From: an uncultured Chloroflexia bacterium
Lineage (GTDB): Bacteria > Chloroflexota > Limnocylindria > Limnocylindrales > CSP1-4
DNA length: 64,000 bases
Reading direction: 5' to 3'
NCBI GenBank assembly: GCA_963810725.1
Contig: CAWEOO010000003.1
Coordinates: forward strand, 135,314 to 199,313
The notes below the pieces were generated by a model, which saw only the letters and a program-made list of their open reading frames with translations, made no database searches and had not been told where the DNA came from. The translations under genes were made by a program, and so were the position numbers. Each line of letters starts with the position of its first letter. Positions within the stretch are counted from its first letter, which is position 1. Below, piece by piece: positions 1,507-49,149 of the stretch.

Positions 1507-4500
1507 TCAGCGGATCGTCAGTTCGCGCCGCGGCGTGATCGCTGCGCGGTTCGGACCGCTGCGTGACTCGACGATGGCGGATTCCCACCGGTACGTGCCC
1601 ACGGTGATCACCCTGGCGACATAGCGCAGCCAGACCGTCCCTTCGTTCGGGCTCCTCATGGCGCAGAAGGTCACGCGTTGAGCGGCCTGCTCCTCGGGAT
1701 AGGTGCGATCTCGCTGGCGCTCGCCCGTCTCCGGATCCATCCAGTCCTCGAGGACCCCCACCGGGACGAGGCCGGACGGCACCATATCCGTCACGCGATG
1801 GCAGCCGATCGCAGCCTGCGGACCGAACGAGACCTTGAAGTCCACGGCCACGAGGTCACGCGCTCGAACGGTCCCGGCGGGGCTGACCCGGCGCTCGATG
1901 GTGACATCCGGGTCCTTCTCGAGGGTCGTGGCGTCCACGGGTTCGCGCCAACTCGTCGTCACGCCGACCGCACCTTCGACGGGCTCGATGGACACGTTCG
2001 CCAGCTGACGCCTTCGTGAGACTGACGCGGAAATCCTCGCCCGGTCCGAGCTCCACGACCCGACGCTCGCCGTCGGACACGTACGCGAAGCTGGCGGACG
2101 CGGCGGGCCGATGCTCCAGCGTCCAGCGGCTGTACCCCACGCTGTGCAACTCGTGCGGTGCCTCGACGCTCGGGTTCGCCTCCACATACGCCTGGTATCG
2201 CGACGCGACCGGGTCGCCCGTCGAAGCCATGAGCATCGCCATGAGCCCCGTGGCCGCGGTGATATCCGCGGCATCGTCGCCGACACGCAGCCGCGCGTGA
2301 CCGTCGACCGCCTCGCCGAACTCGTCGACGAGCGAGGTGATGACCGACCTGGCGGTGGTGGCATCACCCAGGCTAGCGGCGCCCAGACCGGCCATGAGCC
2401 GCTCGCGGACGGTCAACTCCGGGTCGGCGACCGCTGCCCGGATCCTCCGGGAGCACGGGTGCGCCCACACCCGCGAGGCCTGCGAGCGCGTAGATGCGCC
2501 GCTCCCGCGTCGCCTTGGCGTCCTCGGCGACCGCCCGGAAGAAGCTGGTCAGTCGCCATGGGTCGAACCGGTCGGGCGCCACGACCGCCGCGAGCGCAGA
2601 CACTTCGAGATCGCTGCTCGCATAGGGCAGGATCGCGATCCCACCGTCGTCGGTCTGGTACTGGTCCGCGTCGAACGTCGGGGAGTCCGCTTCCTTGCCA
2701 GCGGACGGGAATCGCTGCGCCATCAGCGTCCTGGCGAGGTCCGCCGCGAGGGCTCGCTCAAGGCGGGCGCTCCCGCCAGCGGCAAGCTCCACTAGGCGCG
2801 GGAGTTCCTGCCCGGCCCCCGCATCCGAAACGATGATCTCCGTCATGCCTTCGCCGCCTTCGATGACCGTCGGGCCGGACACCGCCACATAACTCGTCCG
2901 GGTTCGCGTCAGGCGCGACGGCACGACCGCGAAGGAGCGCGTCAGGCGATCGGTCTGCTTCGAGGCGCCGCTTCCCGTCGTGGCCGTGATCGTGATCGAA
3001 TGCGTGCCCAGCTTGAGATCCGGCAAGGGGACGGTCACCGCCTTGAATGCGTCGGCCCGCAGGCCGGATGCGTGGAGCCCCAGGCTCTCGGCGTCGACCG
3101 CAAAGGTCACCCGGTCGTCAGCGTCGAGGGCGGTGCCGAACCCTCGGATCTGGATGGCCGGTCGATCCGCCAGGAGATACTCGGGTGCGATCGCGGCGTC
3201 GATGAAGAAGGGTAGCCCGACCGGGATGAGGGTCGATCCCCCGCCCGCTTCCAGGCCGGCCCCGATGGCCGATGCACCCACGCGCCACGAAGTCAGGTCA
3301 TCCGACAGTCGGAAGGTCACCGACGCACGCCCGTCGGCACCGGTCTCCACGGCCTGGAACAGGACGGTGTCCCGGAACTCGTCGTCACCGCCGCCTCCGC
3401 CGGTGTCGCCGCCTTCGCCACGGTTGCCTGGCCCTCGATGCGAGAGGTACGTCGCCCGGATGCCGGCATCCACCGAGGCGTATAGCTCACGGAGCGGATC
3501 GTCGACGCTGGCGGCGCCGATTTCGAAGAGCTTCTCGTCGACGGCGCGCAGGACGACCGTGGCAGGAATGGGGTCCCCCGTTGCGTTACGCGTCCGGACG
3601 GCGAGGGTCACCTCGTCGCGGGGAGCGTAGCGGGCCTTGTCCGGCTGCACGTCCACGGTGATCGCTCGGTCCGAGGAGCGGAAGCGCGCCTGGAACCGGC
3701 CGGCATCCACGTACCCCGTGCCCGTGAACCGGACCGCGCCGATCTCGACGTTCGGCGGTCCCCATGATGGGAAATCGGTCACGAACCGCGCCGATCTCGC
3801 CACCGTGACGTCCCGGAGGCCGCGCTGGGCCACGTAGAACAGGCGCCGGTCGTCTTCGGGGGTGCCGCTGGCCCCAGGCTCTCGCATCGTCAGGTCGACC
3901 TCGTCGCCGATCCCGAACTCGGTCGGATCGTCCTGATCGGCGCTCAGTCCGAGGAAGGCTGACGCGTGCGGCTCGCCGAAGTCGTGTTCGACGCTCGCGT
4001 GGGTCGTCCGCCTGGCGACGTGGCCGTCGGGATCCGAGAGCGTGAGTTGGACCCGGTAATCGTGGCCCTTGCCGGACGCCGGGATGGACCCGCTGAACCG
4101 GCCGCGATCGTCCGTGCTGATCCGGATCGTCCCGGCGGCCCGCTCCCGCTGCTCGTACTCGTACAAGGGGACGACGCGCTTCTCGATGAAGTCGTACGTC
4201 GTGCCGACCTGCCTGCGCACCGGGATGATCTCGGTGAACCTGGCTGTCACGGTCCGGCTCCTGACCGGCGCACCGCGTGGGTCGAGGTCCCAGATCGAGG
4301 CGCCCGCAGCCAGCTCGCGCTCCAAACGGTCGCGATCGACGACGTTGACGGCGCCCGACATCCTGACCCGGCCGCCGCGGATCTCCGAGTCCGCGGTGAC
4401 GGTCCACATGCTCGGGAACACCATGAAATCGTGACTCGCGCCGTTGATCTCCCCCTCCTCGGCTCGAGCGGGTCGTACGGACACCGTCTGGTGCTCGGGA

Positions 4501-5957
4501 TCCTGCAAGTCCTGGTCATCTGACAGGCGGGCCGTCTTCCGGATGGTGGCGGACCCGGACGCGTTGGTCGTCGCGCTTCCTTCGACGAGCCCATCCATCC
4601 GCAGCGGGACGCCGGGGACCGGGGTGCCCTCGAAGAAGCTGGCCGTCGCCGTGACCCGGATCCGATCGCCGACGATGTAGATGCGGCGACCCGTGGCGAC
4701 ATCCAGTCGGTAGGCGGGTTTGAGGATCCGCCCGACCTGGACATGGCGTCGGGTGACCACCGCACCATCGATGACGAGCTCGAGCCGATAACTGCCCTCC
4801 GGGACGTCACGCAGCGCAAGGGACCCGGTGAACGCCCCGGTCGGCCTCGTTGCCCCCGTGATCTGGGCAATGGGGGCGATCGCCCCGTCGGATCCGTCGG
4901 CCGAGCTGAGTCGGATCGTGACGCTTGCGGGGACTTCGCCGGTATCGCGATCGCGGACGACGCCCCAGGCGTTGATCGCGTCCGTCGGTCGATAGCGGTC
5001 GCGATCGCTATGGAGGAGCTGCCAGAACCGTGGGTGTCCTTCGAACCCGGGCCAGAAGCTATCGATGCCGAAGCCCCCATCGGGGGTTCGCGCACCGGTC
5101 GCCGGGACGAAGGCCGATCGCCGGCCATCGCCGATGACGACCACCGGCTCGCAATCCTTCAGACACGCTCGACCTTGGTCCGCCTTGAGTGATGCCGGGG
5201 TGGCGGTCACGAGGGTGCCGTTCCCGCCGGTGCGGCCAAGCGACGCGCCATCCACGGACACGGTCGCATCGGCGATCGGGTCTCCCGTGGCGAGATCGTT
5301 GGCCCACACCAGGGTGTCGGTATCGGACACGAGCAGGTAGCTCGCGATATCCGTGACCTGCAGGATGGCCTGGGCCGGGTGCTTCTTCGATGGGTACTGC
5401 ACGAGATACCAGCCGGCCGGGAGGCGTTCCGGCAGGCGCGTCCACACCGTCCCCTGGTGATCCTCGACGTGCGCATCGAGCTTGACGACTCGGCGCAGGC
5501 CCTTGGTCGGGACCTGGGGGCCGGTGCTCCACTGGCTCCAGCTCGGGGTCGCGCGAAGGCGGCGGAACGATTCGATGGCCTTCGCCCGATCGGACAGCCG
5601 GTAGACCTCCAGCGGCACGCTGTCGATCTCGTCGCTACCGTCCCAGTCGAACGCCCAAAGCGAGATGATCGGCCGGTCGGCGGTCGCCGAATTCGAACAG
5701 GTCGTTCGCGAACCGGAAGGTCGTCTCGCGCGGGGCCGCATCGTTCGCGGGCGCGGTTTCGAACTGGAATCGGACATCCTCCTCGAGGATCTCGCCGGTC
5801 GCGGCGACCTGCACGCCACGACGCACCGTGACGGTGTAGATCCTGGCCGGGGACAGGCGCTTCGCCGGAACGAACGCGAGGACGCGACCGTGCACCTCGA
5901 AGCGGCCTTCGATCTTGGGCTCGATCGACACGTGTGCCGCGGCGTCGACCACGCCAT
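1507..5957 (-). CDS. Alpha-2-macroglobulin family protein with MG/Ig-like repeats, roughly 1500 aa or more. It is split into three frames: 2373..5957, 1856..2470 and 1507..2367.
   Basis: It contains A2M-type motifs (FRDTVLFQAVETGADGRASVTFRLSDDLTSWRVGASAIGA ... LPFF). Protein-like sequence continues in shifted frames near 2400 and 2000. There is no signal peptide at the frame start. Real coding begins around 5657, where the upstream anti-sigma frame stops. Confidence 0.7.
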
Positions 5958-6834
5958 CCTGGTCGAAGGTGATCTCGATGCCCGTGTCGCGCGGCACGCC
6001 CGTTACCTCGTTGCCGGGGACCGTCGAGATGACCCGCAAGGGCTGCCGTGCCTGGAAGGCCCAGGAATCGAGGGTCTGTCCGTCCGAGCCAGCCAGCGTG
6101 AAGCGGTACACCGCGCCCGGCGTCAGCGGCTCGACCGGGGTGAGGCGGACGCGGCCGTCCGCTTCAGGCGTCGCGGTCAGGGTCAGCGGCGGCTGAACGC
6201 TGACCCGTTCGGCAAGCTCGGCCGGCGATGTCCCGTCGAGGCTGCCAAGGAGGAAGCTGTTCTCGAGCTCGATCATGCCGTCGCGGGCGTGCTCGGCCGT
6301 CAGCTCGGCCACGGGATCCCACCTGGTGGCGAGCACGTCGTTCGGGACGCCCGTGGGGCCTGGCCCTCCCGGGTCACCCGAATTCGGCGGCGCCGAACTG
6401 CCTGGCCCCGCCGAAGGGGCGCCCGATGGATCGACGACGGCGATCCCGCCGTCGGAGGGGATGGCGCGCCAGGCGAGCGTCCCGCCCACGACCGCGACGA
6501 TGACCGCGGCCGCGGCGACGAGAGCCGCCCGGTCACGGAATTGATCGGGCAGCCGGAGCACCGTCGACCGCGCTGGAACCGGGGACGGGAACGGGGCGCG
6601 TCCGCTCACATCTGGCCTCGCGGCGGCACCGACGATCCGAGCGCGCAGGTCGCTGGGTGCGTCTTCGCGGCCGAGTTCGACCAGGGCGACGGCATCAGTG
6701 CGTAGGCCTTCGTCGATGGCCCGGCATTCGCCGCACGATGCGAGATGGGCCGTGAGGGTTTCGGCGTCCGCCAGCGACAGCTCGAAGTCGACGGTGCTGG
6801 CGGCGAGCTCGAGGGCGCGTTCGTGATCGTTCAT
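5635..6834 (-). CDS. Zinc-finger anti-sigma factor with a transmembrane segment and an Ig-like (SbsA/Big-like) extracytoplasmic domain. It probably runs on into the A2M ORF.
   Basis: The N-terminus reads MNDHERALE..HLASCGEC, a zinc-finger anti-sigma (ZAS)-type motif. A hydrophobic helix is followed by a Pro/Gly linker. Its ATG overlaps the sigma-factor stop as ATGA at 6831-6834. The C-terminal 300 bp overlaps the giant ORF in another frame. Confidence 0.7.
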   Translation of the reverse strand: MNDHERALELAASTVDFELSLADAETLTAHLASCGECRAIDEGLRTDAVALVELGREDAPSDLRARIVGAAARPDVSGRAPFPSPVPARSTVLRLPDQFRDRAALVAAAAVIVAVVGGTLAWRAIPSDGGIAVVDPSGAPSAGPGSSAPPNSGDPGGPGPTGVPNDVLATRWDPVAELTAEHARDGMIELENSFLLGSLDGTSPAELAERVSVQPPLTLTATPEADGRVRLTPVEPLTPGAVYRFTLAGSDGQTLDSWAFQARQPLRVISTVPGNEVTGVPRDTGIEITFDQDGVVDAAAHVSIEPKIEGRFEVHGRVLAFVPAKRLSPARIYTVTVRRGVQVAATGEILEEDVRFQFETAPANDAAPRETTFRFANDLFEFGDRRPADHLALGVRLGR

Positions 6835-7406
6835 GGCAGGGCCTGCATCGAGCCGAGCCGCTCGCGGAGCTGGAGCCGAGTACGGCACATCAGGGCCCTC
6901 GTCGCGATCGCGCTGCGGCCGATGGCCTCGGCGATCTCGAGCCCGTTGAAACCATTCGCGGCCATGAGGAGGGCGGTCCGCGCATCCGGTCCGATCTCGG
7001 CGAGGACGGCGTCGATGTCCTGCTTACGCTCGTGCTCGAGGAATTCCGGCTCGGGGCCGGCCTCGACCCCGCGGGCCACCAGCGCACCGAGCTGCTTCTG
7101 CGCCACGGCGGCGCGTCGTGCCCGTGAGACGACGAGATTCGCGATCACGCGGTACAGCCAGGCGCGGATGTTCGTCGGCTCGCGCCCCGCGTCGATCTCG
7201 ACGATCAGGCGGACGAACGCCTCGTGGACGAGGTCTTCTGCCGCTTCGCGGTCTCGGCTGGAGCGGAGCGCGAAGCTGAACAGTTCCCGCTGATGCGCGT
7301 CGTAGAGCGCGGCGACCAGGTCCCCGGTCTGCCCGGCGGCATCGACGCCGGCACTCCCGAGGACGTGCAGGTCATCCATCGTCACGAGGGCCATGCTGTG
7401 GCTCAC
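6831..7406 (-). CDS. ECF (sigma-70 family) RNA polymerase sigma factor.
   Basis: It has sigma region 2 and region 4 motifs (DLVHEAFVRL ... LEIAEAIGRSAIATRALMCRTRLQLR). It is coupled to the downstream anti-sigma by a stop/start overlap. Confidence 0.85.
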   Translation of the reverse strand: MSHSMALVTMDDLHVLGSAGVDAAGQTGDLVAALYDAHQRELFSFALRSSRDREAAEDLVHEAFVRLIVEIDAGREPTNIRAWLYRVIANLVVSRARRAAVAQKQLGALVARGVEAGPEPEFLEHERKQDIDAVLAEIGPDARTALLMAANGFNGLEIAEAIGRSAIATRALMCRTRLQLRERLGSMQALP

Positions 7407-7607
7407 GCCGCGTGTGACGCCGCGACCGCTCGGATGTTGCGCTGCCCTTGTCCATTGCCTGGCCCCTCGACGGGTGATGGCTCGGGCCGGGTGGCTCGAT
7501 CAAAGCAGGCGACGCTTCATCGGTGCCGTTGTTGCAGTCTTGCAGGCAGGTGTCGGCCAGTTGTCAGGCCACCGCTTCAGCCGCGGCGCCACGGAGGTCC
7601 GCCGTCG

Positions 7608-8564
7608 CTACTCCAGGTCCTGGAGCAGCTCCGCGAGCATCAGCGCGTTCGTCGCGCCGTAATTGGCGTAGCAGTTGTTGAACAGGACGTGGGTCTGCTT
7701 CGCCTGGCCGGCGGCTTCGCGGACGCGCGGCACCCACTCCTCGAGCTCGTCCTCGTCGTACAGGTAGCGGAAGCGCTCGACGGTCTTGATGCCGGGCTTC
7801 TCCCACGTCTCGGTGCGGCGGCCATGGAAGCGCACGACCGCGAGCTCCGGTGACGTGGCGGCGACGATGGCCGGCACGCTCGACTTGAAGCCCTGCGGTC
7901 CATCGACCATGACGAGCGGGATCTCGCGGTCGCCCAGGAACTTGAGCGTGCGCTCGATGTTCTTGTCGTTGAACCACGACGCGCTGCGGAATTCGACGGC
8001 CGGCGTCATCCCGACGTTCCGCAATCGGTCAACCGATTCCTCGATCGTGTCGCGGTTCTCCGACGAGGTGAAGAACCAGCGCGGGTACTGGAGCAGGATC
8101 GAGCCGAGCTGGCCGGCTTCCTGCAGCGGCTCGAGGCCGTCGGCGAACCACGCCCACACGTCGTCCTTGAGGGCGTCGGGCAGGTCCTTGGCGTAGATCC
8201 GGGCCTTCTCGGCGACCTCGCCCGGCAGGGCCTCGCGCAGGTCCTTGGGGAGGCGCTTCGTCTCGGTCGGCTGACCGGTCATCAGGGCGTGGGCCTTGAT
8301 GTCGAAGGTGAAGTCGGGCGGCGTGCGCTCGACCCACAGCTCCGAGGTGCGCCGGACGGGCAGCGAGTAGTAGGTCGCGTCGACCTCGACCAGCGGGAAG
8401 CGCGACGCGTAGAACTGGAGCCGCTCCTCGGCGGAGTCGGCGCCGCTCGGGTAGAAGACGCCCGACGCGGTCATCGTCGGGTCGGTCCACGACGCCGTGC
8501 CGATCCGGATCGCGCCGCCGCCCTTGATCGTCGAACGGGTTCGCGGCCACGTCCGGTGCCCCAT
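7608..8564 (-). CDS. DUF72 (YecE-like) family protein.
   Basis: The protein reads IRIGTASWTDP...FYPSG...YASRFPLVEVDATYYSLP, which matches the DUF72 pattern. Confidence 0.8.
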   Translation of the reverse strand: MGHRTWPRTRSTIKGGGAIRIGTASWTDPTMTASGVFYPSGADSAEERLQFYASRFPLVEVDATYYSLPVRRTSELWVERTPPDFTFDIKAHALMTGQPTETKRLPKDLREALPGEVAEKARIYAKDLPDALKDDVWAWFADGLEPLQEAGQLGSILLQYPRWFFTSSENRDTIEESVDRLRNVGMTPAVEFRSASWFNDKNIERTLKFLGDREIPLVMVDGPQGFKSSVPAIVAATSPELAVVRFHGRRTETWEKPGIKTVERFRYLYDEDELEEWVPRVREAAGQAKQTHVLFNNCYANYGATNALMLAELLQDLE

Positions 8565-8660: not shown

Positions 8661-8933
8661 GCAGCGTGGACGACACCGAGCCGCGCGATCGACCTCCACC
8701 TCGAGCTCGCCGACGACGAGGAGCTCGCCGAGCTGGAGCGGGCGCTGCTCAAGGCCCGCGCGACCGAGCTCGGCGAGGTCCGTCGCCGCGACATCCGGCT
8801 CACCGCCGGCTACGGCGACGCGACGACCCGCGACGTGCTCGACGACGAGAGCCGGCGGGCGCGGATCCGCCACGACGTCCTCGGCAAGGTCCTCGACGCG
8901 CTCGGGGCCGCGCGGGGCGAGCGGCGACCCTGA
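8661..8933 (+). CDS. Small acidic hypothetical protein of about 85 aa. It has no canonical in-frame start, so it may be frameshifted relative to the GTG at 8666.
   Basis: GC3 bias is very strong across 81 codons (LELADDEELAELERALLKARATELGEVRRRDIRLTAGYGD...). The frame opens after a TAG at 8658-8660. Confidence 0.35.
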   Translation, partial: AAWTTPSRAIDLHLELADDEELAELERALLKARATELGEVRRRDIRLTAGYGDATTRDVLDDESRRARIRHDVLGKVLDALGAARGERRP

Positions 8934-8939
8934 CGGTCG

Positions 8940-10397
8940 TCAGCCGTGACGCGGCTCCTTGCGCGACCGCCGCCCGGGCCCGGCGTCCGGGCAGGAGCAG
9001 CGACGATGCGGCCACGCCGATGGCGACGACCGCCAGGATGCCGAACCCGGTCGAGATGCCGGCCGGGGTGACCGTTCCGCCCAGCACCGCGCCCGCCAGC
9101 GTGGCGCCGAGCGCCCCGCCGATGTATCGCCCGGTGATATAGGTTCCCGCCGCCATCCCGACCCGCTCCGGACTCGATCATCTCGAGCGCCGCCGTCTGC
9201 CGCGGCGAGCCCGCCATCCCCATCCCGAACCCGACGAGGGCCAGCAGGAGGCCGAGCGCCAGCGTGGACGACTCCGGTGCGACCAGCCAGAGCGCGGCGA
9301 GCCCCACGACGCTCGGCGACCGTGCCGATGACCGCCGGCTGACGACGCCCGACGACGTCCGACCGTCGGCCGCCGATCGGCGCCGCGATGGCGCCAAGGG
9401 CCGAGATGCCGAGCAGCACGAAGCCGCTCGTCTGGGCATCGCCGCCCTGGAGCCGCTCGACGAGGAGCGGCACGAGCACGAGCGTGGCATGGAGGATCAC
9501 CGTGGTCGCCGAAGACGCCGACCACCGCCGCCGCGAACGAGCGCGAGGCGAAGAGCCGCGGATCGACGGCGGGGTGCTCCGTTCGTAGCTCGACGAGGAC
9601 GAACAGGAGCGAGGAGGACGGCGCCGCGAGGATCGCCGCGATCTCCGGCCCGCCGCCCTCCAGCCCGCGAAGGCCGAGCAAGCAGCGAGACGAGGAACGC
9701 CGCGAGGACGCCCAGGCCGGGCAGGTCGATCGGGCGCGGCACGACCGGTCGCTGCGGTCGCGGCTCCGACTGGCCGGGGCCGGACGACCGCTCCGACCGC
9801 GACCGCGGCAAAGATCGCGACCGGCACGGCGACCACGAACAACGATCGCCAGCCCAGGCCCGCGACCAGCAAGCCACCGATGAACGGCCCGACCGCCGCG
9901 CTCGTCGAGACGAGCATGTCGAAGAGCCCGAACGCCGACCCGCGCCGATCCGGCGGCGCCATCGAGCGAAGCAACGCGACCGAGCTCGTGGACACGAACG
10001 CCCCGCTCACCGCCTGGAAGACCCGCGCCAGCGCGAGGACCTCGAAGGAGGTGGCCGTGGCCGCAAGCGCGGACGCAAGCGCGAACGCCGCAACGCCGAG
10101 GAGGAAGAGCCGCCGGTGACCGAACCGATCGCCAAGGCTGCCGCTCGCCGGCAACGCGATCGCGACCGCGCCCAGGTACAGCGTCACGAGCGAGGCGACG
10201 GTGGCCGCGCCAACGTCGAATTCGTCCATCACGCTCGGCAGGGCGACCGCGAGCATCGTCGAGTTGAGCGGGACCAGGATCGCCCCCGAGGCGAGGCCGA
10301 GCATGGCGCCGGTCATCAGGCGGCTCGGGCCTCCGGCCGGAGTCGTGGCCGGCTCGCCCGCTTCGTCCTCGGCCGCCGCCGCGGCCTCCTCGCTCAC
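8940..10397 (-). CDS. MFS transporter of the DHA2/EmrB-like drug:H+ antiporter family, interrupted by at least four frameshifts.
   Basis: MFS motifs (LVPLNSTMLAVALPSVMDEF ... LLFVLVELRTEHPAVDPRLFASRSF ... C-terminal helices) are spread over four ORF-track frames: 8940..11930, 9497..9877, 9178..9681 and 8810..9490. The GTG start overlaps the upstream stop as GTGA at about 10394-10397. Confidence 0.6.
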   Translation of the reverse strand: MSEEAAAAAEDEAGEPATTPAGGPSRLMTGAMLGLASGAILVPLNSTMLAVALPSVMDEFDVGAATVASLVTLYLGAVAIALPASGSLGDRFGHRRLFLLGVAAFALASALAATATSFEVLALARVFQAVSGAFVSTSSVALLRSMAPPDRRGSAFGLFDMLVSTSAAVGPFIGGLLVAGLGWRSLFVVAVPVAIFAAVAVGAVVRPRPVGAATAATGRAAPDRPARPGRPRGVPRLAACSAFAGWRAAGRRSRRSSRRRPPRSCSSSSSYERSTPPSIRGSSPRARSRRRWSASSATTVILHATLVLVPLLVERLQGGDAQTSGFVLLGISALGAIAAPIGGRRSDVVGRRQPAVIGTVAERRGARRALAGRTGVVHAGARPPAGPRRVRDGDGGLAAADGGARDDRVRSGSGWRREPISPGDTSAGRSAPRWRARCWAERSPRPASRPGSASWRSSPSAWPHRRCSCPDAGPGRRSRKEPRHG

Positions 10398-11930
10398 GAC
10401 AGTCGAACGAAGCCGGTCGTCCCGTCCAGCTCGAGCATCTGCCCGTCGGCGATCCGCGTCGTCGCGTCGCCAGTGCCGACCACCGCCGGCAGGGCGAACT
10501 CGCGGGCGACGACCGCCGCGTGGCAGAGTACGCCGCCAGTGTTGGTCACGAGCCCGCCGGCGATCGTGAACAGGGGCACCCACGATGGGTTCGACGACGG
10601 CGCGACGATGATGTCGCCCGGGCCGGACGCGCTCGAAGTCCTCGGGGCCTAGCACGACCCGAGCAGGGCCGCTGGCGATCCCGGCCGAGGCGCCGGTGCC
10701 GCGCACGATCGCATCGTCTTCCTTGGCGAACCGCTCCCCGCCGAAGCGCCCGGACGGGCTCGGCGTCGGTCGGCTTCCCGATCTTGGACGGCGGGGTGAC
10801 GGCCCGCCAGTGCTCATGCTCGGCCCTCCGCTCCGCGACGATGTCGCGACGGTCCTGCGGGCGAGCGAAGGAGCCCCGGCACCTCGGCCCGGCGCAGGTA
10901 CAGCACGTCGTGCGGTCGCTCGATGACGCCCATCGCGGGCGAGCCGGGCACCCACGCGCATCACGAAGGTCCGCAGGCGCGCCTGGGCCATCCGGTCGAT
11001 CCAGTAGTTGTGGGTCTCCGTGATCGGGCCGATCTTGCGGGCCAGGCCAAGCAGTCGTTCGAATTCGGCGAGCCGCTCCGGTTGGTCGGCGAGCCGGTCG
11101 CGGACGCCCTCGGCCAAGGTCTCGGCCTCGCCGGCGAGGCGGGCGGCGCGCTCCGTGGCCGGTTCGACGGCCCGTTCGAGCCGCTTGCCGACTTCGGCGA
11201 GGAGCATCGCCGGTTCCTCGCCCCAGGACGCGAGCGCGAGGTCGTCGAACCCCTGGCCGAGGTGCCCGTGCTCCTCGAGGAAGCGACGCAGCTCCGACAC
11301 GAACGCGTCCGCCGCCCGGGAGCGTCGCCAGCGCCTCGAGGGAAGGTGCCGGTCGCGCCGCGACCGCTGCGGCGAGCTCCGGCGATGCGCCCGCCAGCTC
11401 GGTCGAGGCGCCCAAGGCCGGCGTCCACGCCCACCAACTCGTGGATCGTGCCCTGGATCAGCTTGAGGGCCTCGCCGGGATGCGGCTTCTCGATGACCGA
11501 CTCGTACAGGTCGGCGAGGTCGTCCATGACCTGGTACGGGCCGGTGATCGCGTAGAAATGGATGGCCCAGGCGCGCTGGGCCCGTTCCCACGCCAGCTCC
11601 CAGGCCTCGACCAGCTGCTCGGCCGGCAGCTCCTCGACCTCGATCGCGGCGATCTCGGCGTACAGCCGCTGCAGCTCGGGAACGGCGCGCTCCCAGTAAT
11701 CGACCGCGAGCGGCGTGTGCTGGCGGCAAGGCGGCCATGTACTGCTCGACGACCGCCTCGTGCTCCGACTCCGGACCGAGCGGCATCCACGAGAGGTACC
11801 AATAGCCGTTGACGATCAGGGCCCGCATGCTGATCGGCACGTCGAGCCGCTCGTAGCGGTAACCGAACCCGTTCCCGATGAGCGCCACGTAGTCCTGCGA
11901 GAGCGGCACGAGATAGAACGGCGAGTGCAT
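10394..11930 (-). CDS. PEP-utilising enzyme family protein with a phosphohistidine swivel domain, interrupted by at least three frameshifts.
   Basis: The protein reads GTGASAGIASGPARVVLGPEDFERVRPG and then, in another frame, PLFTIAGGLVTNTGGVLCHAAVVAREFALPAVVG. The N-terminal part is split across three frames (11930-11730, 11527-11400, 11315-10925). Confidence 0.55.
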
Positions 11931-12157
11931 CTCGTCACGACGCCACGAGCGCTCGACATCGCTCGGGTCCGACCACGCGATCGGGAAGTCCTCGGGAGCT
12001 GGACGCGTTCATGCTCGGACTCGTGCTCCTCTCGGGCTCGGACCGGAAGAGTCGCGACAGTCTAGCAACGGGGCGTCCGCGTGCGGCATGCCGCGTGTCC
12101 CTGTGCGCCGGCGCATGATGGGCGCAGCAGGGCCAGAGCTACGAGGAAACGAACGAG

Positions 12158-20390: not shown

Positions 20391-20464
20391 GTTCGGGTCC
20401 TGGCGAGAGGGCCCGGCACGAGATCTGAACGGCGCCGACTGGTCCTCGGCGCGAAGGAGTGGAT

Positions 20465-22396
20465 TTGTCGGTCGGCGTCACTGCCGAGGTCAAGAGCAAG
20501 CTGTCGGTCGTCGATGTCGTCGGCGAATCGGTCACGCTGAAGAAGGCTGGCACTACCTACAAGGGCCTCTGCCCGTTCCACGGTGAGAAGACACCGTCGT
20601 TCGTCGTCACCCCCGCACGCGAGTCGTGGCATTGCTTCGGCTGCGGCCTGGGCGGCGACATCTTCAGCTTCGTCATGCAGCGCGACAGCGCGACGTTCCC
20701 GGAGGCGCTCCGCACGCTGGCCGCCCGCGCCGGCGTCGAGATCGACGAGCGGACGAAGCGCGAGGACGCCCGCCGCGCCCGGTTGCGCCATGTCCTCGAG
20801 ACCGGCGTCGCCTTCTACCACGCCGTCCTGACCGGCTCGAAGGCCGGCGAGAGCGCGCTCGACTATCTCAAGGGCCGCGGCTTCACGGACGCGACGATCG
20901 AGACCCATCAGCTGGGCTGGGCGCCCAACGGCTGGGACCAGATGGCCCGCCAGCTCCAGGCCAAGCGCGACATCCGGCCGGAGGAGCTCGTCGAGGTCGG
21001 CCTCGCCAGCCCCAGCCAGCGCGGCCGCGGCGTGATCGACAAGTTCCGTGCCCGCGTCCTCTTTCCGATCCGGGACACGAGCGGGCACGCGGTCGGGCTC
21101 GGTGGCCGGCTGCTGGAAGGGGAGGGGCCCAAGTACCTCAACTCCCCGGCGACGCCGCTGTTCGACAAGAGCCGGACGCTGTACCTCATCGACAAGGCCA
21201 AGGGGCCGATCCGCAAGAGCGGCCAGGCCGTGATCGTGGAGGGCTACACGGACGCGCTGATGGCGCACCAGGCGGGCTTCGAGAACGTCGTCGCGAGCCT
21301 GGGGACCGCGCTCACCCCGAACCAGATCGGCCTGCTGACCCGCTACGCCAACCGGATCGCGCTCGCCTACGACGTCGATGCCGCCGGCGAGAAGGCGGGC
21401 ACGCTCGGCGTGACCGCGCTCGCCTCGCTCATCGGCCAGCTCCAGGGCGACGTGTCGGGCGTCAAGCTCGAGGACGTGCGCGTCGTGCGCCTGCCCGACG
21501 GCAAGGACCCCGACGAGGTCGTCCGCGAGGACCCGGCCGCGTGGGAGCAAGGAGTCGCCAAAGCCAAGCCGCTGGTCGAGTACCTCATCGGCCACCATGC
21601 CGGCCGCTTCGACCTCAAGACGAGCACCGGCCGGATCGGCTTCGTGGAGGCCGTGATGCCGGCCATCCGCGACATCGCCGATCCGCTCCGGCGCGACGAG
21701 GCGCTCCAGCAGGTCCGCCACGAGTCCGGCGTGGAGGAGCGCGTGCTGCGTCAGGTCCTGGACCGCCGCATCGCCGCGACCGTGGGCCAGGGTTCGCAGC
21801 GCGGTGGGGAAGCCGCGAGCCGCATCACCGCCGACGCCGTTCTGGCATCGCCGGACGCGCTGCCCATCGGCGACATCCTGCGCGCGGTGACCCCGGTCGA
21901 GGCGGAGTTGCTTCGGCTGCTGCTGCTCGTTCCGGACCAGCAGTTGCGCGTGACCGACGAGCTCGGCCCCGACCAGCTGCCGAGCACGCTCGCACGCGAG
22001 CTGTATCGAGCGATGGTCCTCCAACGCGCGCCCGACGATCAGGGCATCCGCCCGCCGTTCGATGGCGCCGCGCTGCTACTCGCCGTCGACGACGAAACGG
22101 CCTCGCTCGCCCGCGCGTTGTACGCGAAGACAGGCCCGGATGCGCGGACGCTCGAGCCGCGCAAGCTCGCCTACGAGATCACGCGCCTGTTGCTGGAGCT
22201 CGAGGATGACCAGTTGCGCGAGCGCAGTGACTACAACGAAGCCGCCCAGGCGGAGGCCGAGCGAGCCGGTGACACCGACTCGATGGAACGCCTGCTCCTG
22301 GAGCGTCGCCAGATCAACGAAGCCCGCCGGTCGCTCGACCGGCGCCGCGAAGACACCCGACTGCTTGCCCGGCCCAGCGTGGCCGTGCACGCCTGA
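20465..22396 (+). CDS. dnaG: DNA primase.
   Basis: It has a CHC2 zinc finger (CPFHGEKTPSF...WHCFGCG) and a TOPRIM (AVIVEGYTDALMAHQAG). The TTG/GTG start follows a GAAGGAG Shine-Dalgarno. Confidence 0.9.
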   Translation: MSVGVTAEVKSKLSVVDVVGESVTLKKAGTTYKGLCPFHGEKTPSFVVTPARESWHCFGCGLGGDIFSFVMQRDSATFPEALRTLAARAGVEIDERTKREDARRARLRHVLETGVAFYHAVLTGSKAGESALDYLKGRGFTDATIETHQLGWAPNGWDQMARQLQAKRDIRPEELVEVGLASPSQRGRGVIDKFRARVLFPIRDTSGHAVGLGGRLLEGEGPKYLNSPATPLFDKSRTLYLIDKAKGPIRKSGQAVIVEGYTDALMAHQAGFENVVASLGTALTPNQIGLLTRYANRIALAYDVDAAGEKAGTLGVTALASLIGQLQGDVSGVKLEDVRVVRLPDGKDPDEVVREDPAAWEQGVAKAKPLVEYLIGHHAGRFDLKTSTGRIGFVEAVMPAIRDIADPLRRDEALQQVRHESGVEERVLRQVLDRRIAATVGQGSQRGGEAASRITADAVLASPDALPIGDILRAVTPVEAELLRLLLLVPDQQLRVTDELGPDQLPSTLARELYRAMVLQRAPDDQGIRPPFDGAALLLAVDDETASLARALYAKTGPDARTLEPRKLAYEITRLLLELEDDQLRERSDYNEAAQAEAERAGDTDSMERLLLERRQINEARRSLDRRREDTRLLARPSVAVHA

Positions 22397-22420
22397 AATC
22401 CAGTCCCCAAGGAGGAACCC

Positions 22421-24157
22421 ATGCCCGCCGATCCGCTCGATAAGCAACTCGTAGAGGCCGTCCTGTCCCGACCGCGCCGCGCCAAGGCCGATCTCGAGGA
22501 GGCCAAGATGGCCGGCCTGCGCCCGGCGCGCGGTGGTGGCACGGCCGTCGCCGCCGCCGACGACGACGATGACGATGACGACGAGGATCTCGACCTCGGG
22601 CCGGAGGCCCCCGCCCCGGACGCCGACGCCGAGGTGAACGTCGAGGTCGTCGCCGAAGACGGCTCGCTCGACCCGGCCGCCAAGCTCCCGCTCGAAGGGC
22701 CGACCAAGCTCGACCCGAAGGAAGTCGAGGAGCCGACGGCCGAGGACCTCGAGGCCATCAGCGCCGACATGATCGGCATCGACGACCCGGTCCGGATGTA
22801 CCTCAAGGAGATCGGCAAGGTCGCCCTGCTGACCGCCGAGGAAGAGGTCGTCCTGGCCAAGGCCATCGAGCTCGGCGAGCAGCTCGTCGACGAGCCGTGG
22901 AAGGGCATCGCGTCGCTGCACGAGTGGACACTTCACGACACCGAGCGCAAGACGCGGACCCAGAAGCCCCAGCATCGCCTGCCGTACGGCGACGAGGCGC
23001 ACGCCCTCGTCCGGACCGCGATCTCGGCCAAGGCCGCCAAGGACCTCCTGGTGCCGTCGCCCGACTTCCACCTCATCAAGGCCGGCCGCGATGCCCAGTC
23101 GGACGGCACCAAGGAGCTGCTCAAGCAGGCCAAGAAGCTCGTCCACACGTACAACGAGCAGTCGACCCCGGACAACTTCATCACGCTGCTGGACTGGGGG
23201 TTCATGGCCGTCCACAACGGCGATCTCGACTCGCGCGACAACGTCGGCCTGCGGGCGATCTGGGACTGGACCCGCGAGGGCGTGGCCTTCCCGGCGCTCG
23301 AGCGCTACATCATGGCCGGCAACGAGGCCGAGCTCCTCAAGAAGATGGGCTATGACCCCGAGGTCCCGGCCAACACGAAGCTGCGCGACCGCAAGGGCGT
23401 CATCGTCGGCATCGGGCGCGACGCGCGCGAGCAGCTGACGTCGGCGAACCTGCGGCTGGTCGTGTCGATCGCGAAGAAGTACATCGGGCGCGGCATGTCG
23501 TTCCTGGACCTCATCCAGGAAGGCAACATCGGCCTGATCCGGGCGGTCGAGAAGTTCGACTACGAGAAGGGCTTCAAGTTCTCCACGTACGCCACGTGGT
23601 GGATCCGCCAGGCCATCACCCGGGCTATCGCCGACCAGGCGCGCACGATCCGCATCCCGGTCCACATGGTCGAGACGATCAACCGGCTCATTCGCGTCTC
23701 GCGTGGCCTGCTCCAGGAGCTGGGTCGCGAGCCGACGGTCGAGGAGATCGCCGAGGCGATGTCCAAGGGCCAGGAGGTCCAGGTCACGCCGGAGAAGGTC
23801 CGCGAGATCATCAAGGTCTCGCAGGAGCCGGTCTCCCTGGAGACGCCGATCGGTGAGGAGGAGGACTCGCACCTCGGCGACTTCATCGAGGACCGCGGGG
23901 CCTTGGCTCCGGCCGAGGCGGCCTCGCACCAGCTGCTCAAGGAGCAGGTCGAAGCGGTGCTCGACTCCCTCACCGGGCGCGAGCGGCGCGTGCTCCAGCT
24001 CCGGTTCGGGCTTGAAGACGGTCGGGCACGGACGCTCGAGGAAGTCGGCAAGGAGTTCAACGTCACCCGCGAGCGGATTCGCCAGATCGAGGCGAAGGCG
24101 CTGCGCAAGCTGCGCCACCCGTCCCGGTCGCGCAAGCTCAAGGACTACCTGGAGTAG
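22421..24157 (+). CDS. sigA: Principal (housekeeping) sigma-70 factor with a long acidic N-terminal extension.
   Basis: It has conserved regions 1.2 to 4.2 ([21 protein letters not shown] ... [24 protein letters not shown] ... [18 protein letters not shown]). An AAGGAGG Shine-Dalgarno is present. Confidence 0.92.
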
Positions 24158-35706: not shown

Positions 35707-35781
35707 TCCGGCGTAGCTCAGTGGTAGAGCGGGCGGCTGTTAACCGCTTGGTCGTAGGTTCGAGTCCTACCGCCGGAGCCA
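35707..35781 (+). tRNA. tRNA-Asn(GTT).
   Basis: A hand-folded cloverleaf gives a 7-bp acceptor stem (TCCGGCG/CGCCGGA), a D-arm GCTC-AGTGGTA-GAGC, an anticodon stem GGCGG/CCGCT with the loop CTGTTAA, a T-arm GTAGG-TTCGAGT-CCTAC, and an encoded 3' CCA. Confidence 0.9.
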
Positions 35782-37768: not shown

Positions 37769-40135
37769 TCAGGCGGCCGCGCTCGGCCTCGACCTGGGGG
37801 CGAGCCGTGCCTCGAGTGCCGGGAGCGGCTCCGGCCGCCCGAAGTGGTAGCCCTGACCGAGCGGGCACCCGAGCTCCAGGAGCCGCTTGGCCGTGGCAGC
37901 ATCCTCGATGCCCTCCGCGACGACCGAGACGTGGAGCGCCGCTCCGAGACTGATGATCGCCTCGACCACGGCCGCGTCGACGCCGCCGTCGAGCATCGTC
38001 GCAACGAACGAACGATCGATCTTGAGCCCATCGATCGGCAGGGATCGCAGGTTGCCGAGCGACGAGAAGCCCGTTCCGAAGTCGTCGAAGGCCACCCCGC
38101 ATCCCGCGTCGCGGAGCCTCCGGAGATAGCCCAGGCCTTCCTCGCCGCAATCGAGCACGAGGCTCTCCGTGATCTCGATGTCGAGAACGTCATGCGGCAA
38201 ACCGGCGTCCCGCAACGCTCCGAGCACGTCGTCCACGATGCGGGGATCGCGCAGCTGGCGGGGCGAGAGATTCACGGCCAGGCGCAGGTTCTCCGCGTCG
38301 CCACCGTTCTGCCGCAGGGCGGCCAGGTCCAGGCACGCCCGCCGGAGGACCCAACGACCGAGGGGCAGGATCAGGCCGGTCTCCTCGGCGGTCGGGATGA
38401 AGGTGGCCGGGGGCACGTCACCCCGCACGGGGTGCGACCAGCGCGCCAACGCTTCGACGGCAACGATGCTGCCATCGCGGAGGTCGACGATCGGCTGGTA
38501 CGCCAGGGTGAGGCGTTCGTGCTCGACCGCCTCGCGAAGCGTCGATTCGAGCTCTTGGCGGGCGGCCACCTCGGCCTGCATCGACGGCTCGAAGAGCGCA
38601 TACGATCCGCGACCGCTGACCTTGGCGCGGTACATCGCGACGTCGGCGTCGCGCAGCAGGTGGTCGACCGTGCCCTCGCCGCTGCCCGCCAGGACGACCC
38701 CGATGCTGCAGCGGATCGTGATCTCGCGATTGTCGAGCCGGAAGGGGCTGTCGAAGGCCGTCAGGACCCGCTCGGCCAGGACGACGACGTCGCTCGGTGC
38801 GTCGATATCGTCCACGAGGATCGCGAACTCGTCGCCGCCCAACCGCGCGATGGTGTCCTCGGGGCGCAGGACGGTATGGAGGCGCCCGGCGATGGCGATG
38901 AGGAGCCCGTCCCCGACGTTATGGCCGAGGCTGTCGTTGACGGTCTTGAACCGATCGAGGTCGAGGAACAACAGCGCGACCGACCGGCGCCCCTTGGAGC
39001 GGCGTTGGAGCGCATGCTCGACTCGGTCCTTGAACAGGGCTCGATTGGCCAGGCCGGTGAGGTCGTCATGGAACGCCTGCTGGATGAGTCGTTCCTCGAG
39101 CTCCCGACGGATCGTGACGTCGGTGAGGGTGCCGGACATCCCGGCGAACTCGCCGTCCTCGTCGAGGATGCGCTGGGCATGCGCTTCGACCCAGATGTCC
39201 GTGCCGTGCTTGCCGACCACGCGCAATTCGTGTCGGTAATCCTCCAGCTTGCCCTGCACGATGGAACGCGCCAGGTCGACGTGGGCCTCGCGGTCGTCGG
39301 GGTGGATGAACTCCGTGATGGGGCGGCCGATCGCGTCGGCGACCGGGTAACCAGTCAGCTCCTCCCATGCCTGGTTGAGCAACGCCCAACGCCCGGCGCT
39401 GTCGACGCGGAAGATCACCTCACGGACGGCCTCGACGACCGTCCGGTAGCGTGCCTCGCTGTCGCGCAGCGCTTCGCTCGAAGTCTGCGCACGTGTCACC
39501 GCGTGCTCGAGTCGACGGCGGTGCCGGAACAAGACGAGACCGACCAGGCCGACGACCGCGGCCAGTGCCCCGACGCGCAGGAGCGCGGCGAATTCCGCAG
39601 GCAGGTCGGGACTCGCCGGCGTGAGCTCGATGATGACGGAGGTGATCACCGCGACGATCCAGGCGGCGATCAGGGCGCCCTTGAGCCGGCGACCGTTCAG
39701 GAAGGAGAGGGCGAAGGCCACGGCCATGATCGGCGCCGCCGCCAGGGCCGGGACCGGAGGCGGAATGGGAGCCGAGGCGAGGACCGCCACGAGCACCGAC
39801 GCGACCAGCAGCATCACCGCCCGCTCCGAACGCCCGGCGAGGAGCTGTCGCCGGGCGTGGATGAGGGCCACGGCGAGCGCGGTCATGACGACGGCTCCAG
39901 CGGCCGACGCCATGTCGCCGGTCTCGAGCACCAGGCCGACTCCCGCCACGGCGAAGATCAGGACGATGGCGGCCATGGCCACGGCCAGACGGGCGAGTTC
40001 GCGGGTTTCGTCGGCGGGAAGCGGGCGTTCGGCGGGCGGGGTCGGTTGGGCTTCAGCGGCATCCACGAACGTGGGGCTCTGGGCCGAACCTGACGGGATG
40101 GACGGGACAGACAAACGGGGACTCCGTTGCGCCAT
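37769..40135 (-). CDS. Membrane-anchored PAS-GGDEF-EAL protein, a c-di-GMP diguanylate cyclase/phosphodiesterase.
   Basis: It has an N-terminal multi-helix membrane domain, a PAS domain, a GGDEF domain (RLGGDEFAIL) and an EAL domain (EALARW...DDFGTG...KIDRSFV). Confidence 0.9.
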   Translation of the reverse strand: MAQRSPRLSVPSIPSGSAQSPTFVDAAEAQPTPPAERPLPADETRELARLAVAMAAIVLIFAVAGVGLVLETGDMASAAGAVVMTALAVALIHARRQLLAGRSERAVMLLVASVLVAVLASAPIPPPVPALAAAPIMAVAFALSFLNGRRLKGALIAAWIVAVITSVIIELTPASPDLPAEFAALLRVGALAAVVGLVGLVLFRHRRRLEHAVTRAQTSSEALRDSEARYRTVVEAVREVIFRVDSAGRWALLNQAWEELTGYPVADAIGRPITEFIHPDDREAHVDLARSIVQGKLEDYRHELRVVGKHGTDIWVEAHAQRILDEDGEFAGMSGTLTDVTIRRELEERLIQQAFHDDLTGLANRALFKDRVEHALQRRSKGRRSVALLFLDLDRFKTVNDSLGHNVGDGLLIAIAGRLHTVLRPEDTIARLGGDEFAILVDDIDAPSDVVVLAERVLTAFDSPFRLDNREITIRCSIGVVLAGSGEGTVDHLLRDADVAMYRAKVSGRGSYALFEPSMQAEVAARQELESTLREAVEHERLTLAYQPIVDLRDGSIVAVEALARWSHPVRGDVPPATFIPTAEETGLILPLGRWVLRRACLDLAALRQNGGDAENLRLAVNLSPRQLRDPRIVDDVLGALRDAGLPHDVLDIEITESLVLDCGEEGLGYLRRLRDAGCGVAFDDFGTGFSSLGNLRSLPIDGLKIDRSFVATMLDGGVDAAVVEAIISLGAALHVSVVAEGIEDAATAKRLLELGCPLGQGYHFGRPEPLPALEARLAPRSRPSAAA

Positions 40136-48286: not shown

Positions 48287-49010
48287 CGGCGTAGGTCGTG
48301 ATCGGGCGTCCGACCAGCGGCGCCTCGCCGAGCTTCACGGTGTTTCGGACGATGCTGGTGAAGACGTGATGATCGCCGACCACGCGCAGCTCATCGAGCA
48401 TGTCGCGAGCGAGGTTGGTGCGGCCGTCGTAGAACGTGGGCAACAGCCCGAGGATGCGCAGGTCGCGGTTGAGCTTGAGCCGGATCGCGTTGATGACCTT
48501 GACGAGGTTGGTCAGGCCCTTCATCGCGTAGTACTGGGTCTGGACCGGGATGATCACGCCGTTGGCGGCCACGAGGCCATTGACGGTCAGCAGCCCGAGG
48601 TTCGGGGGACAGTCGATGAGGACGTAGTCGTAGTCGTCGGTCTGCCCGTCGATGGCGTCGCGCAGGATCTGCTCGCGCCCGAGAGCGGTGAACAGCTCCC
48701 CCTCGGTCGAGGCGAGGTCGATGTGCGCCGGAGCGACGTCGATGCCCGCGCTTTCGGTCGCGCGAATCACTTCGGCGAGCGTCGATCGTCCGTCGGCGAG
48801 CACGTCGGCCATCGAGCGTTCGACGGTATTGAGGTTGATCCCGAGTCCAGCCGTGAGGTTGGCCTGGGGGTCCATGTCGATGCAGAGGATGCGCAGGCCT
48901 TCCTCGGCGAGGGCCCCGGCGAGGTTGATCGCCGTCGTCGTCTTCCCGACGCCGCCCTTCTGGTTGGCGATCGCGATCACATTGGTCACCAGGACATCAC
49001 CTCGAATCAT
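48219..49010 (-). CDS. parA: ParA/Soj partitioning ATPase.
   Basis: It has a deviant Walker A motif ([18 protein letters not shown]). Confidence 0.9.
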
Positions 49011-49096
49011 CGACCGGGCTCGGCGTGCCGTGCAGAGCGGCTGGGGGCGGGGATGTGGTCATGCTACCGCAGCCCACCCGCTTGCGGACAGGCTGG

Positions 49097-49139
49097 TTAT
49101 CCACACGGATCGAGAGTTGTTCACCATTTCGGTGGATAA
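49097..49139. promoter_or_regulatory. Inverted pair of DnaA-box-like sites in the parA/pccB divergent intergenic region.
   Basis: TTATCCACA lies at about 49097-49105 and its inverse, GGTGGATAA (TTATCCACC on the other strand), at about 49131-49139. The segment between them is of relatively low GC. Confidence 0.35.
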
Positions 49140-49149
49140 CTGGGACCGT

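Follow-up and report, generated by a model that had tools for sequence, protein, structure and literature searches.

The 64,000-nucleotide stretch of DNA analysed here (the window), from an uncultured soil bacterium of the Chloroflexia (contig CAWEOO010000003.1, positions 135,314 to 199,313), carries on its minus strand a sigma factor gene of the extracytoplasmic function (ECF) type coupled to a gene in which a zinc-binding anti-sigma (ZAS) domain is joined to an entire alpha-2-macroglobulin (A2M). This fusion architecture is conserved: more than 60 homologues encode the anti-sigma and A2M parts as one open reading frame (ORF), which bears out the proposal of the initial annotation that the window copy is a single fusion broken by small indels. 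As deposited, the fusion gene is interrupted three times, and the operon is listed below with the positions of the interruptions.

6831..7406, minus strand: ECF sigma gene, 191 aa from GTG 7406, with an alternative start at ATG 7394
1507..6834, minus strand: anti-sigma/A2M fusion gene, 1774 aa after removal of three inserted bases
5686, minus strand: inserted base 1, an extra C in GGcGACC, which makes the anti-sigma ORF seem to end (alignment with L001)
2445, minus strand: inserted base 2, an extra G in GAgGAT (alignment with L001)
2009, minus strand: inserted base 3, an extra G in GGCgTCAG (alignment with L001)

In the deposited sequence the anti-sigma frame from ATG 6834 stops at 5635 and is 417 aa long as read; the ORF with the A2M domains (2373..5957, 1194 aa) lies in another frame and begins with 90 Arg/Ser/Pro-rich residues of out-of-frame translation, and 1856..2470 and 1507..2367 continue in further frames. 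The four frames were stitched where protein-like sequence switches, giving a query protein of ~1773 aa. This query had 181 matches in a collection of 5.8 billion proteins, more than 100 of which were single proteins of 1650-1800 aa, so that the pattern is not due to chance; many relatives covered 100% of the query as one ORF of 1750-1800 aa, and the best of them, P0001, is a protein of 1774 aa with 84% identity. When window positions 7406..1507 (minus strand) were aligned at the DNA level with the sigma and fusion genes of L001, the contig that encodes P0001, the nucleotide identity was 85.6% and the only gaps in the fusion gene were three 1-nt insertions in the window (over 5.9 kb). Deletion of these three bases yields a single ORF of 1774 aa with no internal stops. 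The breaks had previously been placed near 5640-5660, 2400 and 2000 and the fusion had been estimated at about 2000 aa or more; both the positions and the length are thus corrected here. The depositor's gene call, P0010, is a 1081-aa protein, 100% identical to the window, that corresponds to the fragment between the first and second shifts.

The alternative that the locus holds two separate genes, a 417-aa anti-sigma gene ending at 5635 and an A2M gene with its own start within 5657-5957, is scarcely credible. It follows from the ORF list and from nothing else, whereas similarity to P0001 changes frame precisely at 5686-5693 without a gap, the ORF at 2373..5957 opens with the out-of-frame residues described above, and in none of the relatives does a stand-alone anti-sigma gene precede an A2M gene that starts independently. 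What the relatives have is the fusion or an A2M without any anti-sigma domain, and the two-gene reading was rejected on these grounds. Programmed frameshifting was rejected as well, as the three sites are unrelated to each other and are not present in relatives.

The product of the sigma ORF matches Pfam Sigma70_r2 (5.7e-14) and exceeds the cut-off of the NCBIfam sigma70-ECF model TIGR02937 (61.8 vs 42.9 bits), while its Sigma70_r4_2 match (20.5 bits) is slightly under the cut-off of 25.7. With a length of ~190 aa, sigma-2 and sigma-4 domains only, and a score above a curated threshold, it belongs among the ECF (group 4) sigma factors, and it is 84% identical to the sigma factor of L001. The ATG of the fusion gene at 6834 overlaps the sigma stop codon as ATGA (CCTGCCATGAACGA), so the ATGA coupling of an ECF sigma gene to a zinc-finger anti-sigma gene that had been noted initially is upheld by the domain matches and by the overlap itself. 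The G+C content of the region is ~70%. A search of positions 1200-1600, downstream of the operon, revealed neither an intrinsic terminator nor a sigma-70 promoter. On balance, we take the locus to be an intact two-gene ECF operon, comprising the sigma gene and the fused anti-sigma/A2M gene, with ATGA-coupled translation.

Origin of the frame breaks

Judged by comparison with relatives, the three frameshifts are very likely single-base insertion errors of a long-read assembly. The genes next to the operon contain ~16 more single-base insertions and no single-base deletions in the DNA alignment with L001, so that all 19 small genic indels over 10.5 kb are +1 insertions, and no in-frame stops are left once these are corrected. 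When proteins encoded by the syntenic neighbouring genes of L001 and L002 are mapped onto the window, the frame switches repeatedly in three genes, each of which has several single-base insertions relative to L001:

7611..8616, minus strand: DUF72 gene
8989..10340, minus strand: major facilitator superfamily (MFS) transporter gene
10400..11987, minus strand: phosphoenolpyruvate (PEP)-utilising/Rph-like enzyme gene

A small gene on the plus strand at 8676..8918 is likewise hit by insertions. In the segments of the fusion gene before, between and after the shifts, the ratio of nonsynonymous to synonymous substitution rates (dN/dS) relative to L001 was 0.20, 0.24, 0.25 and 0.21, and values of ~0.2 past each shift indicate that selection is not relaxed there. 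Among 85 homologous loci, frame changes were found in 13 of the 37 from MFD metagenome-assembled genomes (MAGs), which are deep Nanopore assemblies (PMC12313526), vs none of the 48 from other assemblies. The Rph-like gene that forms one 536-aa gene in L001 is split into pieces of 425 and 86 aa in L002 (L002:848-2496), another long-read MAG, so that assembly frameshifts of this kind are not limited to the window. The error pattern and the relatives suggest that the window assembly is itself of long-read origin.

Set against this explanation is the uneven density of the errors, as intact ORFs of 1.7-2.4 kb are present elsewhere in the window; uninterrupted ORFs at 20459..24157, 37769..40135 and 48652..54547 agree with a frame plot of G+C at third codon positions (GC3), and the GC3 frame plot together with Pfam scans of overlapping ORFs at 25.8-30 kb were not sufficient to demonstrate frameshifts in other parts of the window. 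The insertion errors thus seem to be concentrated in the first 12 kb, for which coverage, strain mixture or nearness to the contig end are possible causes. The same unevenness could be taken to mean that the frameshifts are real and that this copy of the operon is a pseudogene decaying along with its neighbours: the frameshifts stand in the deposited sequence, the depositor's call is the 1081-aa fragment, and the frameshift density at 1.5-12 kb is far above that of the parts of the window holding 1.7-2.4 kb intact ORFs. We consider decay very improbable, as it would have to account for 19 of 19 small indels being +1 insertions and none a deletion, for the lack of in-frame stops in the corrected sequence, for a dN/dS of 0.2 downstream of every shift, and for the confinement of such breaks to long-read MAGs. 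The "broken" state of the gene and the 1081-aa protein in the database almost certainly result from a long-read assembly that was left uncorrected. A tRNA-Asn (GTT) at 35707..35781 on the plus strand is the sole tRNA or Rfam match of the window.

Domains, promoter motif and distribution of the family

The reconstructed protein and the region upstream of the sigma gene contain the following elements, all on the minus strand.

7511..7534, minus strand: distal ECF-type promoter motif P2, CAACAACGGCACCGATGAAGCGTC, AAC-N16-CGTC
7416..7439, minus strand: proximal ECF-type promoter motif P1, CAACATCCGAGCGGTCGCGGCGTC, ending 9 nt before the sigma GTG
6610..6834, minus strand: zinc-binding anti-sigma domain, predicted cytoplasmic, residues 1-75, with H4, H30, C34 and C37
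6466..6546, minus strand: single transmembrane helix, residues ~97-123, with basic residues before it (AlphaFold2 (AF2) and hydropathy)
6280..6465, minus strand: Pro/Ser/Gly/Ala-rich linker, extracytoplasmic, residues 124-185 (composition)
5755..6045, minus strand: Ig-like domain Big_5 (Pfam PF13205, 4.1e-13)
4761..5012, minus strand: macroglobulin (MG) domain MG2 (Pfam PF01835, 4.1e-7)
3522..3929, minus strand: A2M bait-region domain, A2M_BRD (Pfam PF07703, 2.1e-6, 28.5 bits vs a cut-off of 22.7)
3378..3425, minus strand: disordered Gly/Asp-rich loop NRGEGGDTGGGGGDDE, 16 residues, pLDDT 32-49 in the AF2 model
3195..3368, minus strand: A2M (MG7) domain (Pfam PF00207, 1.2e-4, 22.3 bits vs a cut-off of 21)
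2050..2822, boundaries approximate, minus strand: helical domain occupying the thioester-domain position, with GGSARLERAL at 2739..2777 and without CxEQ
1564..1872, minus strand: C-terminal bacterial MG10 domain (Pfam bMG10, 6.2e-5)

The segment HLASCGEC near the N-terminus fits the zinc motif HxxxCxxC. Across 40 fused homologues, the first 130 positions hold just five invariant residues, H4, L10, H30, C34 and C37, and H30-x3-C34-x2-C37 with H4 corresponds to the HxxxCxxC motif plus a fourth ligand, as in the ZAS group of class I anti-sigma factors. Sub-threshold NCBIfam matches of this part of the protein were to the anti-sigma model NF052375 (1.2e-9) and to the RsrA model TIGR03988 (1.9e-4). 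An AF2 model of the N-terminus (pLDDT 80.5) has helices at residues 3-16, 21-33, 35-53 and 61-72 followed by a long helix at 97-123, and its only meaningful fold matches in the PDB were both RsiW chains of the SigW-RsiW zinc complex 5wuq. We infer from these results that the N-terminus is a class I zinc-binding anti-sigma domain similar to RsiW, which would sequester the sigma factor. In P0039, residues 30-37 read HLAGWPSC instead of HxxxCxxC, with the first Cys changed to Trp in an otherwise typical fusion protein, which may reflect a sequencing error or mean that the zinc site has been lost naturally.

The highest-scoring Kyte-Doolittle window (residues 103-121, score 2.42) lies in the only strongly hydrophobic segment, and the fusion protein is predicted to have a single-pass type II (N-in) membrane topology. 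The transmembrane helix and the Ig-like repeats noted in the initial annotation were thus recovered (one predicted helix at residues ~97-123, and Big_5 at 4e-13). The linker that follows the helix differs in length and sequence among homologues. Beyond the linker, the MG domains and the bait region that had been expected of an A2M were found with hidden Markov models, and the expected thioester was not: the CxEQ motif is absent from the 1774-aa protein and from 120 homologues, save for an off-position CCEQ in P0028.

An AF2 model of residues 383-1461, taken from the uninterrupted stretch 2451-5687 of the window and built with 46 homologues, had a pLDDT of 81.8 and a pTM of 0.66. Beta-sandwich domains make up most of it, and helices appear from model residue 956 on. 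The top Foldseek matches of this model were native ECAM (5a42, 6.9e-39) and Salmonella A2M (4u48, 3.4e-37), followed by trypsin-activated ECAM and then by A2ML1, C5, C3, CD109, human A2M and TEP1, with the matches as a whole spanning 1e-25 to 7e-39. A phmmer search of the PDB with intact P0001 gave no match, and a profile of the family matched the C-termini of 4u48 and of ECAM 5a42 at ~1e-12. The loop NRGEGGDTGGGGGDDE, between the bait-region domain and MG7, is at the canonical bait position, and EFRDTVLF, which resembles FPETW, comes directly after it. With a chain of MG beta-sandwiches of A2M fold, a bait-region domain and an exposed flexible loop before MG7, the ectodomain qualifies as an A2M, and the extracytoplasmic part of the protein comprises a flexible linker, Ig-like domains and an entire A2M without a thioester. 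Assignment to the Type I thioester A2Ms was rejected, as there is no CxEQ, no lipoprotein anchor and, in the eight neighbourhoods inspected, no pbpC neighbour.

The upstream regions of the sigma genes at 18 loci diverge except for a block, GCAACATCC-N-GCGTCAC (AAC-N16-CGTC), which ends ~9 nt ahead of a conserved [AG]TG start. AAC-N16-CGTC is at the expected place in 18 of the 18 sigma-linked loci with enough upstream sequence, while the background frequency of the regular expression AA[CT]A-N14-[GA]CGTC is 16 matches in 1.25 Mb (0.013 per kb). Throughout the 64-kb window, CAACAN{14,17}GCGTC is matched by P1 and P2 only, with 0.47 matches expected. Since P1 ends 9 nt before the GTG, the leader would be very short or absent. 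A second copy of the motif is located ~95 nt further upstream in about nine loci (L001, L002, L010, L011, L017, L034, L045, L048 and L074). An anti-sigma gene linked to the sigma gene and a putative promoter of the AAC (-35) / CGT (-10) type are hallmarks of ECF operons, and it is likely, given the conservation of the motif, that the operon is autoregulated through this promoter.

The motif is not confined to sigma-linked genes. At least 12 unfused A2M genes, which encode no ZAS domain, have it 60-93 nt upstream of their start; these starts were anchored on the motif GIEITFDQ, as tblastn with N-termini is confounded by truncated database proteins. With a relaxed pattern, it was also found before ZAS-bearing genes without an upstream sigma gene (L013, L023 and L087). 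Its presence before both fused and unfused A2M genes makes the A2M gene look like an ECF target family-wide. In the clade of the window, the conservation suggests that sigma factor, inhibitor and target have been packed into one autoregulated operon.

A species scan (one genome per species) recovered 79 loci, nearly all of them from Chloroflexota or Ca. Limnocylindrales MAGs. The loci L013, L015, L047, L078 and L085 are on short contigs in MAGs labelled Verrucomicrobiia, Methylomirabilota or Actinomycetota, and the long contigs are all Chloroflexota; the other labels look like mis-binning rather than horizontal transfer. The genes for the fused proteins P0001, P0011 and P0074 are in different neighbourhoods (L001, L002 and L006), each with a Sigma70_r2 gene directly upstream that overlaps by 4 nt, and tblastn identified ~19 distinct loci in which the ZAS N-terminus has a homologous sigma gene immediately upstream. 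Apart from the sigma gene, the genes flanking the operon are unrelated and differ from locus to locus. Homologues without a ZAS domain have no adjacent sigma gene (L003, L004 and L005, for instance), the exception being a related sigma/anti-sigma pair beside L080. Database names of the family members are 'Ig-like domain-containing protein', 'alpha-2-macroglobulin' and 'hypothetical protein'.

In a neighbour-joining tree of 106 ectodomains (62 from ZAS-bearing and 44 from ZAS-less members), constructed without support values, members without the ZAS domain form the deepest branches, and no fewer than 11 changes of state by gain or loss of this domain are required. The ZAS-less proteins P0067-P0072, which are nested among fused proteins, begin with MIDRERVRELLRRPAFL (for example at L004:3022-3110), in which the first ten anti-sigma residues are joined straight to the pre-membrane motif and the membrane helix is kept. 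Such a start indicates an internal in-frame deletion of the zinc-binding domain. The gene of this type in L004 has kept the ECF promoter motif 88 nt upstream and has no adjacent sigma gene. The fused clade P0047-P0076 also has no upstream sigma gene and is often next to a separate, paralogous operon, which encodes a sigma factor ~50% identical to that of the window and a zinc-finger anti-sigma factor of 600-633 aa without a recognisable ectodomain family. The paralogous operon was located at the following sites, and at L080 its sigma gene is preceded by the same promoter motif (7899..7921).

L052:309-2806, minus strand: divergent
L030:261-2758, minus strand: divergent
L080:8075-10314: downstream
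L087:10311-11023: downstream

Possible signal, comparison with known systems and significance

How the sigma factor might be released can be proposed by analogy with other systems. At rest, the fusion protein would hold the sigma factor at the membrane. Extracellular proteases would cleave the A2M ectodomain, which is exposed, either in the loop at the bait position or in the Pro/Ser/Gly linker (residues 124-185), the truncated stub would become a substrate for intramembrane (site-2) proteolysis, and the released sigma factor would transcribe its own operon, replacing the consumed protease trap, and perhaps other targets too. Both halves of this scheme have precedents: thioester-less MagD traps protease following bait cleavage (PMC5764988), and stepwise proteolysis of membrane anti-sigma factors is known (PMC4183432, PMC10202637). 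That protease attack is the signal and regulated proteolysis the release step is tentatively suggested by these analogies. It is a little more doubtful, and yet possible, that the A2M ectodomain acts as a decoy receptor, such that a foreign endopeptidase biting the bait loop or the linker serves as the site-1 protease. The conserved ECF promoter, the disordered loop at the bait position and the RsiW-like domain appear to give protease sensing a better motivation than it had before.

Several observations weigh against this scheme or the assignments on which it is built. A cut in the bait region alone would leave a large N-terminal fragment in the membrane, which would have to be trimmed further to allow a site-2 protease to act. 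No gene for a site-1 or site-2 protease was linked to the locus in the eight neighbourhoods inspected. The mechanism rests on sequence and models, and all members of the family are from uncultured MAGs. The fold match to RsiW in 5wuq has an E value of 0.2 (prob 0.98, TMt 0.69), and the Pfam matches to zf-HC2, MG2 and bMG10 are under their gathering thresholds. Furthermore, an alignment of 47 homologues shows that the bait-position loop has a conserved core, GGDTxGGGGD, and that its flanks are variable and often basic. Classical bait regions are variable, and a conserved core could reflect a specific endogenous protease or another role.

This conservation leads to a different explanation, in which the fusion and the operon are real but foreign proteases are not what the A2M ectodomain senses. 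The anti-sigma domain might couple the activity of the sigma factor to the amount of A2M in the membrane, as a negative feedback, or the signal might be another envelope stress, for which a dedicated endogenous site-1 protease cuts the Gly/Asp-rich loop or the juxtamembrane region. The core GGDT-GGGG-D is more in keeping with a site of specific recognition than with a universal bait, and ZAS membrane anti-sigma factors such as RsiW do use a dedicated site-1 protease (PMC10202637). In addition, the ECF promoter motif precedes unfused A2M genes too, so that A2M may be a mere output of an envelope-stress regulon. We nevertheless regard this explanation as rather unlikely, because it leaves unexplained why an entire 1600-aa trap, and not a small sensor, has been joined to the anti-sigma factor in more than 60 lineages, and because no conserved protease gene accompanies the operon. 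A cytoplasmic redox switch, in which the HxxxCxxC zinc site senses thiol or oxidative stress in the manner of RsrA and the A2M is a co-regulated passenger, would be in keeping with the invariant ZAS motif and the weak match to the RsrA model (1.9e-4). It is improbable, as the first zinc ligand is His (H4) and not Cys, the best structural match is to the membrane-bound RsiW, and the membrane anchor and huge ectodomain are unlike the soluble RsrA. RsiW is not known to be a redox sensor.

Of the characterised systems, SigW-RsiW of Bacillus subtilis resembles the one described here in its adjacent, co-transcribed sigma and anti-sigma genes, in the N-terminal cytoplasmic HxxxCxxC zinc domain and single transmembrane helix of the anti-sigma factor, and in an autoregulated promoter of the AAC...CGT type, as proposed for the operon of the window. 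The extracytoplasmic domain of RsiW is small (~100 aa), while the ectodomain encoded in the window is an A2M of ~1650 aa. RsiW is cut by the site-1 protease PrsW and the site-2 protease RasP (PMC10202637), and no linked counterpart of these was found at the window-type loci inspected. SigV-RsiV is similar in concept: the ectodomain of the anti-sigma factor directly meets a hostile extracellular enzyme, lysozyme, and its engagement leads to stepwise proteolysis and release of the sigma factor (PMC4183432). However, RsiV binds lysozyme and is cut by signal peptidase, and its ectodomain is unrelated to A2M, whereas the attacking enzyme in the window system would itself be a protease. In the SigI-RsgI systems of cellulolytic clostridia, membrane anti-sigma factors carry carbohydrate-binding ectodomains borrowed from an extracellular protein family as sensors; these belong to another anti-sigma class and another sigma family, and the sensor binds a polysaccharide instead of acting as a substrate for a protease.

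Among bacterial A2Ms, ECAM (YfhM) of E. coli and Sa-A2M of Salmonella, both of Type I, are the top structural and profile matches of the ectodomain and share with it a tether to the cytoplasmic membrane, a layout of multiple MG domains, a bait region and a C-terminal MG10. Type I A2Ms have a CXEQ thioester, a lipoprotein anchor and pbpC as a partner gene (PMC5764988). In contrast, the protein of the window has neither CXEQ nor a lipobox, its sequence identity to ECAM and Sa-A2M is ~13%, and no gene for PbpC or another penicillin-binding protein was present in the eight neighbourhoods inspected. MagD of Pseudomonas aeruginosa, a Type II protein, likewise has no CXEQ and retains the bait-region domain, by the definition in PMC5764988. 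However, it is a Gram-negative periplasmic protein with a signal sequence that is held at the inner membrane by MagB and encoded in the six-gene operon magABCDEF, whereas the protein of the window, from Chloroflexota, is without mag neighbours and has its own transmembrane helix and an anti-sigma domain.

ECF anti-sigma factors occur with many sensor domains, and bacterial A2Ms are viewed as passive periplasmic protease traps of Gram-negatives, whose regulation and triggers are poorly known. The anti-sigma/A2M fusion appears to be undescribed, as had been suspected at the outset: a full-text literature search for anti-sigma factors together with A2Ms returned no paper linking the two, although a description outside the searched literature is possible, and the main text of the papers on ECF reclassification and on class I anti-sigma factors makes no mention of A2M, MG2 or Big_5. 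It is therefore likely that the operon is new on two counts, in the sensor of an ECF sigma/anti-sigma pair and in the anchor and signalling role of a bacterial A2M. The conserved covalent fusion provides a concrete hypothesis for how a bacterium could detect attack by proteases, it connects A2M genes with an ECF regulon also where they are unfused, and it extends membrane-tethered A2Ms to Chloroflexota. As the module consists of two genes and a short promoter, a protease-responsive switch could be built from it in a heterologous host. If the ectodomain does serve as a decoy, extracellular proteolytic attack would be read directly as transcription, with the trap rebuilt in proportion to its consumption; no bacterial A2M before it would have had a signalling role, and the protein would be a counterpart in prokaryotes to the thioester-protein or 'guard/decoy' sensing of eukaryotic innate immunity.

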